DNA of 64,000 nt from a virus (lineage: Duplodnaviria; Heunggongvirae; Uroviricota; Caudoviricetes), in the IMG/VR virus record IMGVR_UViG_3300043436_004750. One strand, written 5' to 3'. Under the pieces are notes generated by a model that worked only from the letters and a program-made list of their open reading frames with translations, ran no database searches and had not been told where the DNA came from. Both the position numbers and the translations under genes were made by a program. Positions 3,226 through 50,521 of the stretch are shown piece after piece (position 1 is the stretch's first letter; every line of letters starts with the position of its first letter).

Positions 3226-3469
3226 TATGAAAATAGAAGACGTAGTATTGTACCACAAGAAGTATAGAGGTAATAAAGTAACCTTCAACTCTAGAAAAGG
3301 GGCAGGAAAGGTTATAGAAGGAATAGCCGTACAGGTGGTAAAGGAACAAGGAGGACTAATAATACTCAGAGACTATGATAACTTCCCACATTGTATATCA
3401 ATATTAACATTAGAAATCGCAGATCAAGAAGCAGGGCTTCTTTCAAGCTCTGTCTTCGACGAGATATGA
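3194..3469 (+). CDS. hypothetical protein
   Basis: 91-aa ORF overlapping previous gene end. Confidence 0.45.
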   Translation: MYGMYLKWYYNMKIEDVVLYHKKYRGNKVTFNSRKGAGKVIEGIAVQVVKEQGGLIILRDYDNFPHCISILTLEIADQEAGLLSSSVFDEI

Positions 3470-3687
3470 AAACAATCATTCATGTTAACCAGCATATAAT
3501 AAAAGCTAATAGAAAGAACGGAGATAATAAACCAGTACTTACTGTTAAGACTTATAAAGAGAATAGGTACGGTCATGAAGTTGAAATAAACGGACCAAGT
3601 AAAGTGGTGTATAGTCCAGATAAGCCATTAAGTTGCGGTGCACATGTTTGGATAGAGACCAATGGAGAGGTAATAGTAATAAGATAA
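3466..3687 (+). CDS. hypothetical protein
   Basis: Internal ATG of track ORF 3391..3687 forming ATGA overlap with upstream stop; MKTIIHVNQ... Confidence 0.45.
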   Translation: MKTIIHVNQHIIKANRKNGDNKPVLTVKTYKENRYGHEVEINGPSKVVYSPDKPLSCGAHVWIETNGEVIVIR

Positions 3688-3834
3688 GAAAGGAAGTACC
3701 ATAGAGGTATAGGAGTAAATAATATAGAAGATAATATAATAGATACTCCAGCAATCGTAAGAAAGAATAATAAGAAAGACATAGGCAATACTGTAGAGAA
3801 TATAATAAAGAATATAGTATAGAAACCCATTCAT

Positions 3835-3884
3835 AGACCCGTCTAAGAACCCGGTCTATAACCCGTCTTGATACCCAATCCATA
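3835..3884. repeat. 12-bp-period iteron array (4 copies) (A/G)ACCCG(G)TCT
   Basis: acccg/acccaa at 3837, 3849, 3861, 3873, i.e. 12-nt spacing. Confidence 0.6.
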
Positions 3885-3944
3885 CGGCGAAGCCCGAGTA
3901 GGCTTCTTAGTCTACGACCCGTTTCTCTACCCAATCGATACCCG

Positions 3945-3990
3945 TATCGTAGATTGAGAAACAGAGTATCTCACCTACTCTATCTTCGAC
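3945..3990. repeat. 46-bp direct repeat copy 1 with internal hairpin
   Basis: tatcgtagattgagaaacagagtatctca..tactct.tcttcgac; second copy at 4064..4109. Confidence 0.7.
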
Positions 3991-4063
3991 TTATACATAC
4001 GTATCACATAGGGAAGATAACTGGAGAGACATAGAGAGAACTACTGAGAAACATAGTAAAAGG

Positions 4064-4109
4064 TAAGGGACTTTATCGTAGATTGAGAAACAGAGTATCT
4101 CAATTACTC
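4064..4109. repeat. 46-bp direct repeat copy 2 (hairpin acagagta-tctcaat-tactctgt)
   Basis: Near-identical to 3945..3990. Confidence 0.7.
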
Positions 4110-4367
4110 TGTCTTCGACGGTTAAACATAAAGAGTAGAAAAAAGAAGGGAAGAGTATAAAGACATATAGTACTAGGTATGAAAAGGTACTATATAGTAT
4201 ATACGATGTGTAAAATGATAGGAAAGGGATAGTAAAATAAGAATAGGAAAAATGTGGCGGGTGTGTCTCCCTAATAGTTTTTTCCTATAATAAGGAAAAC
4301 CTATAGTAGATACCCGTTCTATAGACCCGTTTTATATACAAAGACCCGTCTAGTAACTCGATTCGAT

Positions 4368-4500
4368 ACCCAATTGAGACCCGTTCTGTAACCCGGGCTA
4401 GTTACCCGTTTTGTTACCCGACTTGGCACCCAATTGAGACCCGTTTTGTAACCCGACCTCTTACCCGTTTTGTTACCCGATTGAGACCCGTTTTAGTCCC
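4368..4500. repeat. iteron array: about 57-bp unit x2.3 containing nine GT(T/A)ACCCG sites at 11-12-bp spacing
   Basis: acccg at 4379, 4391, 4404, 4416, 4439, 4451, 4463, 4475, 4486; followed by ccccc-ttcg-ggggg hairpin. Confidence 0.65.
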
Positions 4501-4543
4501 CTGGTTACTTCCCCCTTCGGGGGTAAAAAAGTTGTTAAAAAAG

Positions 4544-4575
4544 TTGCCTATATGGCCTATGGTTCTTATCTTTAG
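4544..4575 (+). promoter_or_regulatory. early promoter family member
   Basis: TTG 4544-4546, 20-nt spacer, TATCTTTAG 4567-4575. Confidence 0.55.
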
Positions 4576-4598
4576 GTATAATCAAAAAAGATATAGAT

Positions 4599-4778: not shown

Positions 4779-4893
4779 CCCTCTACAGGATATGAAAACA
4801 ATTCAAGTTACTCTCCAGGAGAGATGGGCAGCTTCCAAGCACCAGGTTCACAAGTCGAAAAAATCCTACACCAGGAAAGACAAGCATAAGAAA

Positions 4894-4922
4894 AAGGGCT
4901 CCAATCAAGGCCCTTCCTTTTT
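4894..4922 (+). terminator. hairpin aagggc/gccctt + T-run
   Basis: seen in sequence. Confidence 0.45.
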
Positions 4923-5000
4923 ATCTAAAGCTTTCCTTTAAGTATAATATTTAGTTAAAGCTTTCCTTTAAGTTAAAGTAACAGTTTAAGTTAAAGCATC
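4921..5000. repeat. direct repeats aaagctttcctttaagt x2 and tttaagttaaag x3
   Basis: seen in sequence; 30/18/18-nt spacing. Confidence 0.5.
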
Positions 5001-5207
5001 ACTTTAAGTAGTTATAAAACAGTAGTAGGTATTACTAACTACCAGGCAAGGCCTACCCTCCAGTCTACTCTTCCGACTCTCTTTCAAAGCCAGGCCCCTT
5101 ATAATATTCCTTTCTAATGTACCTAAAGATACGAACTATATCTTTGTTAGGCAACTTTTTTAGTAACTTTTTTTTAATTTATAATGAGTATAAATAACGT
5201 ATAGAAG

Positions 5208-5266: not shown

Positions 5267-5641
5267 ATGGTAAACAACATTAAAGGATTACAGCTTGTAA
5301 ATTTCATTGGAGAAAGAAAAGGTATCTTCCAGGCCATAGTAAAGGTACCGGCAGGTTTTATGGTAGCATCTGAGATAGGTTCTGAATTACCTAGCCTTAA
5401 TAGATGGAAGAAAGGAGCTCTTCAATCTATCCAGTTTAAAGCTCAGGGGGTAAATCACTGGGTAACAGTATTTGCTAAGAAAGGTACAAATATAATCTTA
5501 TTAGATGAGAAGATAGCTGAGACGGTAGAGGTAGGTACAATCAATCAATTGTTCTATAACACCAATCTAATGGATCAGAATCAATATCAAGCAGTAAAGG
5601 CCAAGACATGGGCTGATAAGGCATTCTTATTAAACGAATAA
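5267..5641 (+). CDS. hypothetical protein
   Basis: 124-aa ORF downstream of promoter. Confidence 0.6.
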   Translation: MVNNIKGLQLVNFIGERKGIFQAIVKVPAGFMVASEIGSELPSLNRWKKGALQSIQFKAQGVNHWVTVFAKKGTNIILLDEKIAETVEVGTINQLFYNTNLMDQNQYQAVKAKTWADKAFLLNE

Positions 5642-8313: not shown

Positions 8314-8393
8314 AGTCAGGTGGCGGAATTGGGTCAAGCTATGGTACTTTTTAACAATACTTAAGCATACAGGTTCGAATCCTGTCCTGACTA
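8314..8393 (+). tRNA. tRNA-like gene, 80 nt, no encoded CCA; isotype not resolved
   Basis: AGTCAGG...ACAGGTTCGAATCCTGT-CCTGACT-A: perfect 7-bp acceptor and canonical T-arm; possible anticodon arm gtact-ttttaac-aatac (TTA?) is uncertain. Confidence 0.45.
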
Positions 8394-8425
8394 CAAAAAT
8401 AAATTAAAAAAAGTTACTAAAATAG

Positions 8426-33869: not shown

Positions 33870-34616
33870 TTGGAAAATAGTTACTATTTATTAAAAAAGA
33901 GTAGTATGCAAATTTACAAGATTACAAATAGGGTAAATGGAAAAGTTTATATAGGGAAGGATGAAGCAAGTAGGCCTCCGTACTATGGATCAGGAAAGCT
34001 TATAAGAAGGGCAATACAGCTGTACGGGAAAGATAGTTTTGAAAAAGAAATAATAGAAGATGTAGAAGGAAGAGAACTGCTTTGTGAAAGAGAAATCTAC
34101 TGGATATCTTTTTATAACAGTACAGATAGCAGGATAGGATACAATATTACCAAAGGAGGAGATGGAGGAGACACTTTATCAAACCATCCAGACTTAGATA
34201 CTATTAAGGAAAAAATCTCAAATGCTACAGTAGGAAGAGTCTTCACAGAAGAACACCTTATTAACCTAAAAAAGAATCATCCAAAACTAACAATGGAGGA
34301 GAAGAATATGGATAAAGCTACTTGGTTGGTTTCAATTAGAGAATCACATGCAAAGAGAAAGGGAAAGACATTAGAGGAGATTGTAGGAGAAGATAGAGCA
34401 AAAAAGATAAAAGAACATCTAAGAGAGAAGAGACAGGAGAGGGCAGAATACTTTGAAACACCAGTTGCACAATACTCTAGAGAAGGGGAACTCCTTCAAA
34501 CTTATAAAAGCCAGGCAGAAGCATCTAAAGCAACAGGTATAAGGCAGGGTGATATTTCAAATTGCATAAAAGGAAGACAAAAAGTAGTTAAAGGATTTAT
34601 TTGGAAAAGGATATGA
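33870..34616 (+). CDS. GIY-YIG homing endonuclease
   Basis: IYKITNRVNGKVYIGKDEASRPPYYGSGKLIRRAIQLYGKDSFEKEII..E...YW...YN (I-TevI/Seg-like); C-terminal basic DNA-binding tail; start may be 33906. Confidence 0.7.
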   Translation: MENSYYLLKKSSMQIYKITNRVNGKVYIGKDEASRPPYYGSGKLIRRAIQLYGKDSFEKEIIEDVEGRELLCEREIYWISFYNSTDSRIGYNITKGGDGGDTLSNHPDLDTIKEKISNATVGRVFTEEHLINLKKNHPKLTMEEKNMDKATWLVSIRESHAKRKGKTLEEIVGEDRAKKIKEHLREKRQERAEYFETPVAQYSREGELLQTYKSQAEASKATGIRQGDISNCIKGRQKVVKGFIWKRI

Positions 34617-47693: not shown

Positions 47694-48452
47694 ATGGCAG
47701 ATAATTTTAATTTAAGACAATTCTTAACAGAGAATAAACTTACAAAAAACGCAAAGCTTTTAAAAGAAGAAGTTTCTTTAAACGGAAAACCAGTAAACAT
47801 GCAATCAATCGAGATTGACGGAATAGAAAGAGATGACTTTCCAGACTTTGTAGATGCATATATTACTTATGCCGAGTATGAGGACGGTACTCCATTATCA
47901 GATGAAGAGTTAATGAGCTTGGAAGATGAGAATTATGGACTAACAGGAGAATTAATACACGACAGGCAGCTTTACCTAGAAGCAAAAAAACAAGCATCTA
48001 GCGGGGATATGGCTTATACCGAAAAAGCTGAAGAAGGAGTAAATGAAAACACACTAACTACTAAAGAAAGACGTTTAGTTGAAATGGTTCAGAATGCTTT
48101 AGGAATAGTTCCTCAAGCTGTAGCAGAAGAAGCTCCAATGGCAGAAGACGAAATGGTTCAAGAAAATCCACTTCCAAAATACAAAAATATTGATGAGTTA
48201 ATGTCAAACATCGAGTACGGTACAAACGAAGCAGCTCATAAATATAAAATGGAAAGAATGAAAGAAGTAGCTGAGGCTTTAGAAGCTAAAGTATCATCTT
48301 TAGAAGAAGGAGAAAATGCTGAGCATATTGACCAAAAAGCTGTTAAACAAATGCGTAAAGATATTTTAGCATTAAGAAAAGGAGAAGAGAAACTAAGAAA
48401 AGAATTCGAAAAGAAATTCGCAGCAAAAAAAGAAAAGAAAGAAGATAAGTAA
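47694..48452 (+). CDS. acidic protein, paralog 1 (shared N-terminus)
   Basis: MADNFNLRQFLTENKLTKNAKLLKEE. Confidence 0.55.
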   Translation: MADNFNLRQFLTENKLTKNAKLLKEEVSLNGKPVNMQSIEIDGIERDDFPDFVDAYITYAEYEDGTPLSDEELMSLEDENYGLTGELIHDRQLYLEAKKQASSGDMAYTEKAEEGVNENTLTTKERRLVEMVQNALGIVPQAVAEEAPMAEDEMVQENPLPKYKNIDELMSNIEYGTNEAAHKYKMERMKEVAEALEAKVSSLEEGENAEHIDQKAVKQMRKDILALRKGEEKLRKEFEKKFAAKKEKKEDK

Positions 48453-48865
48453 TGGAAAACTTTAATTTAAAAAAATTCTTAGTAGAAAATAAATTAACTA
48501 CTAATTCTAGATTGTTGAAAGAAGACGAGGAAGAATACGGAGAAGAGCAGGAAACTATATATGAAGATAATGAAAATAGAATACTACTAGTATATGAACC
48601 GGTAGAAGACGGAGCAACCTATGATATAGAGTCAGGAGAAGAGGGAGAGGATATGCCATGGTATTTAGTAAATGATTTTCACGGAGAAGATTGGGATGTA
48701 TTTAGTGGATATTTAGAAAGACCAACAGATAGGCAGATAGCAAAAGATGTTATCGATCACCTAGGAGAAGTAGATAAAAAAGGATTTTACTTAAAAGACT
48801 TCGGGCATATAGAAAAAGGAATTAAACTAAAACCAGATTTATCAACTTTTTCTTCAAACGAATAA
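48452..48865 (+). CDS. acidic protein, paralog 2 (possible small terminase?)
   Basis: MENFNLKKFLVENKLTTNSRLLKEDEEE; directly upstream of TerL. Confidence 0.5.
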   Translation: MENFNLKKFLVENKLTTNSRLLKEDEEEYGEEQETIYEDNENRILLVYEPVEDGATYDIESGEEGEDMPWYLVNDFHGEDWDVFSGYLERPTDRQIAKDVIDHLGEVDKKGFYLKDFGHIEKGIKLKPDLSTFSSNE

Positions 48866-48946: not shown

Positions 48947-50521
48947 ATGCCACAACAAGATATAAAACAAATAGTTACACAGGAGTATATAAAATGTGCT
49001 AAAGACCCAGCTTACTTCATGAAGAAGTACTGCTATATACAGCATCCAACCAGAGGTAGAATCTTATTTAACCTCTACCCATTTCAGGAAGGAGTATTAC
49101 ATTTATTTAGAGATGAGAAGTTTATAATAACTCTTAAATCAAGACAATTAGGAATCTCCACACTAGCCTCAGCATATGCTCTATGGCTAATGGTCTTTCA
49201 CAAAGATAAAAACGTATTAGCACTTGCAATCACACAAGCAACAGCTAGAAACCTTGTAACTAAGACGATTTTCATGTACGAGAATCTACCAAAGTGGCTA
49301 CAATTACCTTTTACAGAAAAGAATAAACTATCTCTTAGACTTAAGAACGGTTCTAAAATAACAGCTAAATCCTCAAACTCTGATGCAGCTCGTTCAGAAG
49401 CAGTATCATTACTGCTAATAGATGAGGCTGCTTTTATTGATAATATTGAAGAAACATTTACTGCAGCACAACAAACCCTAGCCACCGGAGGACAGTGCAT
49501 GGCATTGTCTACTCCAAATGGTGTAGGAAACTGGTTCCATAAAACATGGGAAAAAGCTGAAGCAGGAGAGAATGGATTTGTACCTGTTAAATTAAGATGG
49601 GATGTACATCCGGAAAGAAAGCAAGACTGGAGAGATGAACAAACAAGACAGTTAGGAGAAAAGCAAGCAGCTCAAGAGTGTGATTGTGATTTCCTATCAT
49701 CTGGAGATTCAGTAATCGAGGTTGAGAACATGTCTTTCTACGAAGAAACATATGTAAAAGAACCAACGGAAAAGAGAGGTGTAGATGGAAATCTATGGAT
49801 ATGGGAATCACCTGACTATCAAAAATCTTATATGGTTGTTGCCGACGTTGCTAGAGGGGACTCTACCGACTACTCTGGCTTTCATGTCTTTGATATTGAA
49901 AGCTGTACACAAGTAGCTGAGTATAGAGGAAAGATATCACCTAAAGAATATGGAAACGTATTGGTAGGAATAGCAACAGAGTACTGTGATGCATTACTAG
50001 TAATAGAGAATGCTAATATAGGGTGGTCAACCATTGAACAAGTACTATCAAGAGAGTACAAAAACCTCTACTATTCATCAAGATCAGACACTGAAACAGT
50101 TGAATCTTATATGGCTAAATACGAAAGAGATAAACTTGTACCAGGATTTACCATGTCTCTTAAGACAAGACCGCTTGTCATCGCTAAAATGACTGAATAC
50201 ATACGGGAAAGATCAGTTATAGTACAGTCTAAGCGATTATTATCTGAAATGAGAGTATTCATATGGAAGAATGGTAAGGCGCAGGCACAGACGGGGTATA
50301 ATGACGATTTAGTGATGGCTTTTGCAACAGCTTTATATGTTAGAGATACTGCCATTAGAATGAGACAACAAGGAATGGATCTTTCAAGGGCTACAATGAA
50401 CTCTTTTGTAAGCCTTAATCAAAGAAGTCAAGGTGTTTATAATGTTGCTCCTATGCAGAATAATCCATATCTTATGAAGACAGCTAACGGTGATGAGGAT
50501 CTTTCATGGCTATTAGGATAA
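48947..50521 (+). CDS. terL: terminase large subunit (T4 gp17-like)
   Basis: KSRQLGIST (T4 gp17 Walker A SRQLGKT-like), LLLIDEAAF Walker B, C-terminal nuclease-size domain. Confidence 0.8.
   Translation: MPQQDIKQIVTQEYIKCAKDPAYFMKKYCYIQHPTRGRILFNLYPFQEGVLHLFRDEKFIITLKSRQLGISTLASAYALWLMVFHKDKNVLALAITQATARNLVTKTIFMYENLPKWLQLPFTEKNKLSLRLKNGSKITAKSSNSDAARSEAVSLLLIDEAAFIDNIEETFTAAQQTLATGGQCMALSTPNGVGNWFHKTWEKAEAGENGFVPVKLRWDVHPERKQDWRDEQTRQLGEKQAAQECDCDFLSSGDSVIEVENMSFYEETYVKEPTEKRGVDGNLWIWESPDYQKSYMVVADVARGDSTDYSGFHVFDIESCTQVAEYRGKISPKEYGNVLVGIATEYCDALLVIENANIGWSTIEQVLSREYKNLYYSSRSDTETVESYMAKYERDKLVPGFTMSLKTRPLVIAKMTEYIRERSVIVQSKRLLSEMRVFIWKNGKAQAQTGYNDDLVMAFATALYVRDTAIRMRQQGMDLSRATMNSFVSLNQRSQGVYNVAPMQNNPYLMKTANGDEDLSWLLG

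Follow-up and report, generated by a model that had tools for sequence, protein, structure and literature searches.

The subject of this study is a block of short direct repeats in a 64,000-nucleotide stretch of tailed-phage DNA (Caudoviricetes; IMG/VR record IMGVR_UViG_3300043436_004750), which is called the window throughout. A first-pass annotation, made from the DNA letters alone, had marked this block as a candidate replication origin, packaging site or genome terminus. Our analysis strongly supports its interpretation as a cis-acting array of phased repeats that is non-coding, unique in the genome and almost certainly bound by a dedicated protein. With less than even confidence, we further read it as a nucleoprotein assembly site, most likely an iteron-type replication origin. 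Of the options first proposed, the terminus is disfavoured, while origin and packaging site are inseparable by sequence, with the origin ahead.

Two phased repeat arrays around a conserved centre

Between positions 3825 and 4495 (about 700 bases) we found 22 ACCCR sites, all on the + strand, grouped in two arrays and spaced by 11–13 bp. The arrays are GC-rich islands (GC 0.47–0.52 versus 0.33 genome-wide), and the region 3688–4598 as a whole is without a convincing gene. Its main parts are:

3688–3824, no strand: AT- and purine-rich spacer (GC 0.27, purine 0.715) between the gene at 3466–3687 and array 1
3825–3944, + strand: array 1, eight ACCCR sites (3825, 3837, 3849, 3861, 3873, 3917, 3929, 3940)
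3991–4073, no strand: centre, left part (TTATACATACGTAT...GGACTTT), conserved in the alignment of 13–14 lineages
4120–4311, no strand: centre, right part, purine-rich on the + strand, with the paired boxes TACTAGGTA / TACTATATA, the GC-rich island TGTGGCGGGTGTGTCTCC and the TATAATAA palindrome
4312–4495, + strand: array 2, 14 ACCCR sites (4312 to 4490), 11 of them within 4368–4490

The phased arrangement ACCCR-N6-8-ACCCR occurs 18 times in the 64-kb window versus 0.23 +/- 0.49 times in dinucleotide-preserving shuffles, and 17 of the 18 matches fall inside the block. Thus the presence of a repeat block, as first annotated, is borne out by a repeat density far above shuffled expectation, while several of its details have to be revised. 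Array 1 had been described as four units at 3835–3884; it comprises eight sites and is interrupted by a hairpin. Array 2 had been described as nine sites organised in a unit of about 57 bp, repeated 2.3 times, at 4368–4500. The array itself was correctly recognized, but it holds 14 sites, and Tandem Repeats Finder detects a period of 12 (8.0 copies, 4401–4494) and one of 60 (1.9 copies, 4368–4480). Within array 2, units of the form ACCCGTTYT tend to alternate with ACCCRnnnT, which leads to a super-unit of about 24 bp (the di-iteron GAGACCCGTTTTGTAACCCGACCT) and a higher-order repeat of about 60 bp. The left end of the block also moves. A non-coding block of 850 bp at 3700–4560 had been proposed, and this region is indeed gene-free; its part up to 3824, however, does not belong to the element. 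The spacer 3688–3824 is conserved in none of the relatives and lacks similarity to the genes upstream of their blocks. Its interpretation as a remnant gene was rejected, since no similarity was found, and the spacer is outside the conserved element.

In the window the phased motif is essentially confined to the block. The same holds for Flavobacterium phage vB_FspM_immuto (Immutovirus, 160,410 bp, record MW353175; hereafter immuto), which is about 90% identical to the region and the only match to the block among phage isolates. Its genome carries the block once, at 66.3–67.0 kb, together with one isolated match to the phased motif elsewhere that is probably due to chance. The near absence of the motif outside the block argues for a function at a single locus rather than for a dispersed operator. 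PLSDB plasmids revealed no sequence similarity to the block.

Related IMG/VR loci were gathered by array and centre patterns and via the neighbouring gene 5267–5641, and the comparison set comprised 14 lineages. A 16-mer taken from the centre gave mostly chance matches in unrelated contigs. Degenerate scans for a 12-bp period, in genomes and metagenome contigs, were swamped by unrelated coding and other repeats, and two loci (L221 and L224) were the sole new family members among the matches listed. In all 14 lineages the layout is constant: read along the coding strand, array 1 (4–8 sites) is followed by a gap of 280–372 bp, array 2 (5–14 sites) and the first early promoter. The conservation in related phages that the first-pass annotation had suggested checking is therefore found. 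To the left of array 1 the sequences of different lineages are unrelated, whereas conservation extends over the element and the adjoining promoter on its right; on these alignments, the left boundary is a mosaic junction.

The centre is as well conserved as a gene. Among lineages with the ACCCG core, it exceeds the neighbouring gene in identity in three of five comparisons (93 versus 86.5%, 89 versus 84% and 78 versus 72%), and in the other two both are about equal. In lineages with an AACCG core the centre is somewhat less conserved than the neighbouring gene (63–74% versus 71–75%). Judged from these identities, the centre is under purifying selection. Since it is conserved, but comprises neither a conserved RNA structure nor an open reading frame (ORF), it acts as DNA.

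The two cores provide a further line of evidence. The site consensus is GnnACCCGTTT (133 sites) in the former lineages and GnnAACCG(A/T)TT (69 sites) in the latter. The AACCG core was found where the neighbouring protein is only 66–70% identical, in the same layout and with a strict 12-bp period. Units ending in ...CCGTTT and ...CCGAT tend to alternate, and this alternation suggests a functional unit, or dimer footprint, of about 24 bp. Plasmid and phage iterons co-evolve with one specific binding protein. A core that changes across dozens of sites while the geometry remains the same is the pattern expected of sites co-evolving with one dedicated DNA-binding protein.

One lineage was found to carry part of the element twice. 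IMG/VR contig 3300036944_001659 (L040) carries, at positions 1–640, two copies of a module made up of array 2, GC hairpin and early promoter, with a small membrane-protein gene in between. This suggests that array and promoter can be moved or duplicated together.

A proposed iteron-type origin and the readings that compete with it

Iterons are direct repeats of the same orientation that are specific to their replicon, and the block corresponds to this description with 22 sites at a single locus and a lineage-specific core. It resembles the iteron origins of R6K (gamma), P1 (oriR/incA), lambda (ori) and P4 (ori/crr), whose repeats are likewise arranged in one orientation, replicon-specific and concertedly evolving. 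As in P1 incC/incA and P4 ori/crr there are two separated clusters, once per genome. The position of the element fits as well: it marks the restart of the one-directional gene map, with a hypervariable gene region on one side and the first early promoter on the other. All 42 window ORFs of at least 150 aa lie on the + strand, and of the 239 genes annotated in immuto nearly all are on one strand, apart from a few very short ORFs.

One might envision the following scenario. A dedicated sequence-specific protein, probably encoded by the phage, would bind the sites cooperatively. Given a period of 12 bp rather than 10.5 bp, it may form a protein filament winding around the DNA. Two such filaments would enclose the conserved core or bend it into a loop. 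Strand opening or priming would take place in this core, and replication would then proceed rightwards. Starting from a block at the restart of the gene map, rightward replication would be co-directional with all transcription. GC and AT skew, which the first-pass annotation had proposed as a check, were computed: both are near zero or positive across the window and immuto, GC skew without a sustained change of sign. Together with the one-strand gene order this is compatible with one-directional replication from the block. However, since every gene is on one strand, effects of replication and transcription are inseparable and the skew is uninformative.

This is the first of several points that weigh against an origin. 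A distinct unwinding element was not detected in the block; the duplex stability of the centre is about -72 kcal/mol per 60 bp, with values from about -66 to -73, compared to a genome mean of -72.5, and with a GC content of 0.31–0.34 versus 0.333 genome-wide it is not unusually AT-rich. DnaA boxes are missing from the block as well, and a DnaA-dependent origin was rejected for this reason. Neither the adjacent nor the other proteins searched against Pfam, PHROGs and PDB gave a hit of Rep, DnaA, helicase-loader or winged helix-turn-helix (wHTH) type. Hence, the block differs from iteron origins in lacking a recognisable adjacent Rep gene, a distinct AT-rich unwinding element and DnaA boxes, and its abutting 12-bp units differ from typical iterons of 17–22 bp that lie about two helical turns apart. 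Split arrays beside a promoter fit partition centromeres and pac sites equally well. Finally, T4, a member of the same broad group of phages, has 12-nt direct repeats at oriE. This parallel is counted in favour of an origin, but the role of the T4 repeats in origin activity was never established. These repeats sit within the coding sequence of gene 5, and Tandem Repeats Finder sees periods of 24 and 48 nt. The phage studied here shares with T4 the terminase, portal and capsid gene types, but the block has only the 12-nt period in common with oriE; its arrays are intergenic, lie where the early region begins, are much larger and form two separate parts.

A less likely alternative to the iteron-type origin is a pac site. 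In this case the small terminase would bind both arrays, the first cut would be made in or near the centre, and headful packaging would proceed rightwards. P1 pac and SPP1 pacL/pacC/pacR consist of two clusters of short direct repeats around a central region, and this layout matches the block. Furthermore, the element is unique in the genome and located at the 'start' of the one-directional gene map, and many metagenome contigs break in or just past it. However, pac sites are usually found in or beside terS, whereas the block is 44 kb away from the terminase gene. The large terminase (48947–50521) is T4 gp17-like, with 26–33% identity to gp17 of T4 and cyanomyoviruses, and the gp17 group packages without a strict pac site. 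While this is an inference from the protein family, a T4-type terminase argues against a sequence-specific start of packaging, and it points to headful packaging without fixed ends as the probable mode. The contig breaks, in turn, are scattered and found at arrays and promoter cassettes. A precedent is provided by the large lytic phage ICP1, in which an ORF-less region of 1.3 kb serves as pac site, close to the late rolling-circle origin (PMC7145576). A big lytic myovirus can possess a large ORF-less pac region, yet the region of ICP1 is without repeat arrays.

Rather less probable is that the block forms a complex of the parC/tubC type, either centromere-like or acting as an operator. In that case a small protein encoded just downstream would coat the arrays and either position or organise the phage DNA or shut off and insulate the first early promoter. 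In plasmid R1, type II parC consists of direct repeats in two blocks around a promoter, and in pBtoxis and prophage c-st the direct repeats of type III tubC precede the operon in two or three blocks. The binding protein of either type also represses the promoter, and the small protein that coats the repeats forms a helical or ring filament (PMC5016525, PMC6009700). The block shows repeats with a 12-bp period in two blocks beside a promoter too, with the arrays abutting the first early promoter, but this promoter lies outside the arrays rather than between them. The duplication of array 2, hairpin and promoter as a unit in L040 would fit such a complex, as would a highly conserved basic protein of 49 aa that is encoded downstream of the block in 15 array-bearing loci. 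The N-terminus of this protein, however, does not follow the change of the core motif. Furthermore, the gap between the arrays is a conserved stretch of 300 bp instead of a short promoter, which is unexpected for a simple operator. The phage, with a genome of 160 kb, also looks strictly lytic: neither integrase nor plasmid-maintenance genes are annotated in immuto, whose portal and capsid genes are annotated as T4 gp20 and gp23 types. Forty proteins were scanned for partition components (30 window ORFs and 10 from immuto, leaving out small ORFs and part of the genome), and no ParM, TubZ, ParA, ParB or ParR/TubR was found among them; this includes the ParB-like protein assumed in the first-pass annotation. 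Consequently, motor, adaptor and binding-protein homologues that characterize parC/tubC systems are lacking in this set.

A more speculative variant, which we consider decidedly unlikely, combines features of these systems. In a strictly lytic T4-type phage, the block could serve as a segrosome-like filament site, with a split 12-bp-iteron array coated by a tiny, unclassified basic protein, and be neither a conventional origin nor a pac site. It would help to arrange or place the phage chromosome, or else form a polar barrier. If this were true, such a barrier would force replication to be co-directional with the wholly one-directional transcription, and the switch from ACCCG to AACCG would represent a ready-made specificity pair for dissecting recognition.

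The genome terminus of the first-pass annotation is disfavoured, and we consider it very improbable that the genome physically ends at a fixed point in the block or that a terminal repeat has its boundary there. Its position at the restart of the gene map, adjoining early promoters, is reminiscent of the left ends of T7- and T5-type genomes, and of the eight IMG/VR contigs obtained in the first scan for the array pattern, five stop no more than 1.4 kb downstream of it. However, at least ten independent contigs cross the block with kilobases on either side. A relative of 167,382 bp was assembled as a circle, as indicated by an overlap of 128 bp between its ends, and in this contig the block is located 13 kb inside. 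Nor do the break points coincide at a common base: contigs of the phage's own population start at window positions 3506, 3709, 4014, 4389, 4426, 4832, 4867 and 5038, and contigs of relatives end between +107 and +1357 nt, counted from a fixed reference sequence in the centre of the block (position 4243). The breaks coincide with the arrays and with near-identical promoter cassettes of about 70 bp, and such scatter is expected of assemblers at repeats. The promoter cassettes probably cause breaks in metagenome assemblies. Given the T4-type terminase as well, the block is probably not a fixed genome end.

Least probable of all, to a degree that we would hardly consider it, is a non-coding RNA or a gene for a repeat peptide: the gene-like conservation of the centre, the fold of its minus strand (z = -2.6) and an upstream ORF that continues through array 1 as NRLQ repeats in one lineage (L041) would fit, but the block has no Rfam match (three hits with E >= 0.34 are all downstream), the RNAalifold consensus of 13 lineages amounts to about -0.6 to -0.7 kcal/mol on either strand, the only host-type promoter is the early one at the right edge, and with sites 11, 12 and 13 bp apart no reading frame is kept. 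A structured RNA was consequently rejected, with unremarkable single-sequence z-scores of -0.7 and -2.6 and a consensus energy of about zero. Coding repeats were rejected as well, because of the spacings and because the open frame and strand are inconsistent between lineages. Mechanically called minus-strand ORFs overlap 3545–3934, and short stop-free stretches span the arrays, in a strand and frame that vary by lineage; the earlier statement that no ORF explains the region therefore holds in substance.

Two observations on gene calls around the arrays may be added. In some lineages a 62-aa gene upstream of the block stops exactly at array 1; in L041 (3538–3813) this gene is without a stop codon and runs on through the array. 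In immuto (MW353175) two 'hypothetical protein' genes are annotated inside the arrays, at 66350–66445 (- strand) in array 1 and at 66811–66933 (+ strand) in array 2. Both are probably false gene calls on repeats.

Decorations, promoter cassettes and neighbouring genes

Several conspicuous structures of the block are not shared by all lineages, in contrast to the promoter cassette that follows them:

3889–3906, + strand: GAAGCC-N6-GGCTTC hairpin (6-bp stem, -4.8 kcal/mol) that breaks up array 1
3945–3990, + strand: 45/46-bp hairpin insertion, copy 1, in this phage and immuto only
4074–4119, + strand: 45/46-bp hairpin insertion, copy 2, in this phage only, splitting the conserved centre
4511–4523, + strand: CCCCC-TTC-GGGGG hairpin followed by an A-run (CCCCCTTCGGGGG)
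4524–4580, + strand: first early promoter cassette, two copies of TAAAAAAGTTG, then TTG-N22-TATCTTTA (4544–4574) and GGTAT

The pair of 46-bp repeats had been noticed before, at 3945 and 4064 and each with an 8-bp stem. The pair is real, but its second member starts at 4074, and the perfect 8-bp stem is found in copy 2 only. The two copies are 93% identical and fold, as DNA, with -5.2 and -6.4 kcal/mol (z = -1.3 and -1.9). With two copies here, one in immuto, none in any other lineage and two different insertion points, the 45/46-bp sequence resembles a very small element that is mobile or prone to recombination. A third occurrence of its last 13 nt (CTCTGTCTTCGAC) is located at 3448–3460, just upstream of the gene starting at 3466. 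The GAAGCC hairpin is unique to this phage, and immuto has extra repeat units in its place.

The palindrome in the right part of the centre had been read as ttttcc-tataata-ggaaaa. The arms are as described, but the spacer comprises 8 nt (TTTTCC-TATAATAA-GGAAAA), and the palindrome is nested in a 10-nt inverted repeat, ATAGGAAAAA / TTTTTCCTAT, with arms 26 nt apart. A tetraloop had been assigned to the C5/G5 hairpin at the right edge; the hairpin is present, but CCCCCTTCGGGGG folds either with 5 bp and a 3-nt loop or with 4 bp and a UUCG loop, and weakly (-4.7 kcal/mol, z = -0.8). It is without a T-run and was not called as a terminator. While the C5/G5 hairpin occurs in ACCCG lineages, both this hairpin and the palindrome are missing from AACCG lineages. 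From their distribution, the 46-bp hairpin repeats, the GAAGCC hairpin, the palindrome and the C5/G5 hairpin are to be regarded as lineage-specific decorations and not as parts of the core.

The early promoter that had been placed right after the hairpin was recovered as TTG-N22-TATCTTTA at 4544–4574, 49 bp past the end of array 2. Its -33/-7 boxes are of the Bacteroidota type, and no other promoter of this type (TTG...TAnnTTTG-like) was detected in or near the block. The sequence TTATCTTTAGGTAT, first present in this cassette, occurs in 11 perfect copies on the + strand between 4566 and 12110. Each copy sits in a near-identical cassette of about 70 bp that consists of AAAAGTTGC, about 20 nt, TTCTTATCTTTAGGTATcaataattaaaaca and then ATG, and several cassettes contain a GC stem-loop in the spacer, for example GCCTCTTCGGAGGC. 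They fit Bacteroidota -33/-7 promoters and resemble the promoter-stem-loop cassettes of T4-type phages that are thought to shuffle small genes.

Downstream of this promoter, two small genes were considered in the search for a protein that might bind the arrays:

4792–4941, + strand: very basic protein of 49 aa (MKTIQVTLQERWAAS...; start also MKTIQVTLQERWAASKH...)
5267–5641: protein of 124 aa, universal among the loci by construction, being the query with which they were gathered

Neither protein gave a Pfam, PHROG or PDB match in sequence searches, and among 47 proteins scanned with Pfam and PHROG none matched a DNA-binding, Rep or Par family. For the 124-aa protein, the model predicted by AlphaFold (mean pLDDT 34.7) was unusable. 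The 49-aa protein is a candidate binding partner. In tblastn searches it was detected in the 15 array-bearing loci mentioned above and gave no match in L043, which starts inside an array, nor in the array-less loci L044 and L045. Its identity across lineages amounts to 57–93%, often above that of the neighbouring 124-aa protein. In our own reading, its N-terminus (KTIQVTLQERWAAS) may resemble the strand-helix start of a ribbon-helix-helix protein; this N-terminus is identical in ACCCG and AACCG lineages and thus does not track the change of the core. The reading frame extends into the hairpin of a terminator at 4894–4915. Two further small genes, the 71-aa first early gene and the 62-aa upstream gene of some lineages, are missing from this phage and from immuto and can therefore not be a universal partner.

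Following the terminator, four tandem palindromic units of about 18 bp (TTAAAG-N5-7-CTTTAA) are found at 4926–5009 on the + strand, and beyond them a conserved non-coding stretch (...CTACTCTTCCGACTCTCTTTCAAAGCCAGGCCCC...) reaches to about 5170. Immuto and IMG/VR relatives possess both of them, and the region from 4926 to about 5170 has the appearance of a further operator-like array or of a locus for a small RNA.

Three observations concern more distant parts of the window. Just upstream of the large terminase, two genes on the + strand (47694–48452 and 48452–48865) have the N-terminal motif NFNL+QFLxENKLTxN in common without matching any family; they could be duplicated small-terminase or scaffold-like genes. 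An ORF at 33870–34616 (+ strand) contains NUMOD1 and I-HmuI-like NUMOD DNA-binding domains as well as a below-cut-off GIY-YIG (SegE-like) match, and resembles a homing endonuclease gene, with structural and replication genes around it. At 8314–8394 (+ strand) ARAGORN predicts a tRNA with the anticodon TTA (Rfam tRNA score 32.4 bits, gathering score 29). Such a suppressor tRNA would read the stop codon UAA; it is located among early genes, away from the annotated tRNA cluster of immuto.

Relevance for Immutovirus-like phages

From its similarity to known systems, we regard the element as a new member of a familiar kind, without sequence relationship to the others. The 160-kb genome is transcribed in one direction only, and the block is its single obvious control element. 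It also accounts for the tendency of metagenomic assemblies of these phages to break there. Immutovirus-like Flavobacterium phages are widespread in public metagenomes according to our searches, with 564 homologues in public assemblies for one neighbouring gene alone. To our knowledge, their cis-acting replication and packaging signals have so far not been described. The block supplies a defined 12-bp site, a probable 24-bp binding unit and two natural specificity classes, ACCCG and AACCG, and thus represents an entry point to the replication and packaging biology of this widespread and unstudied group of phages.

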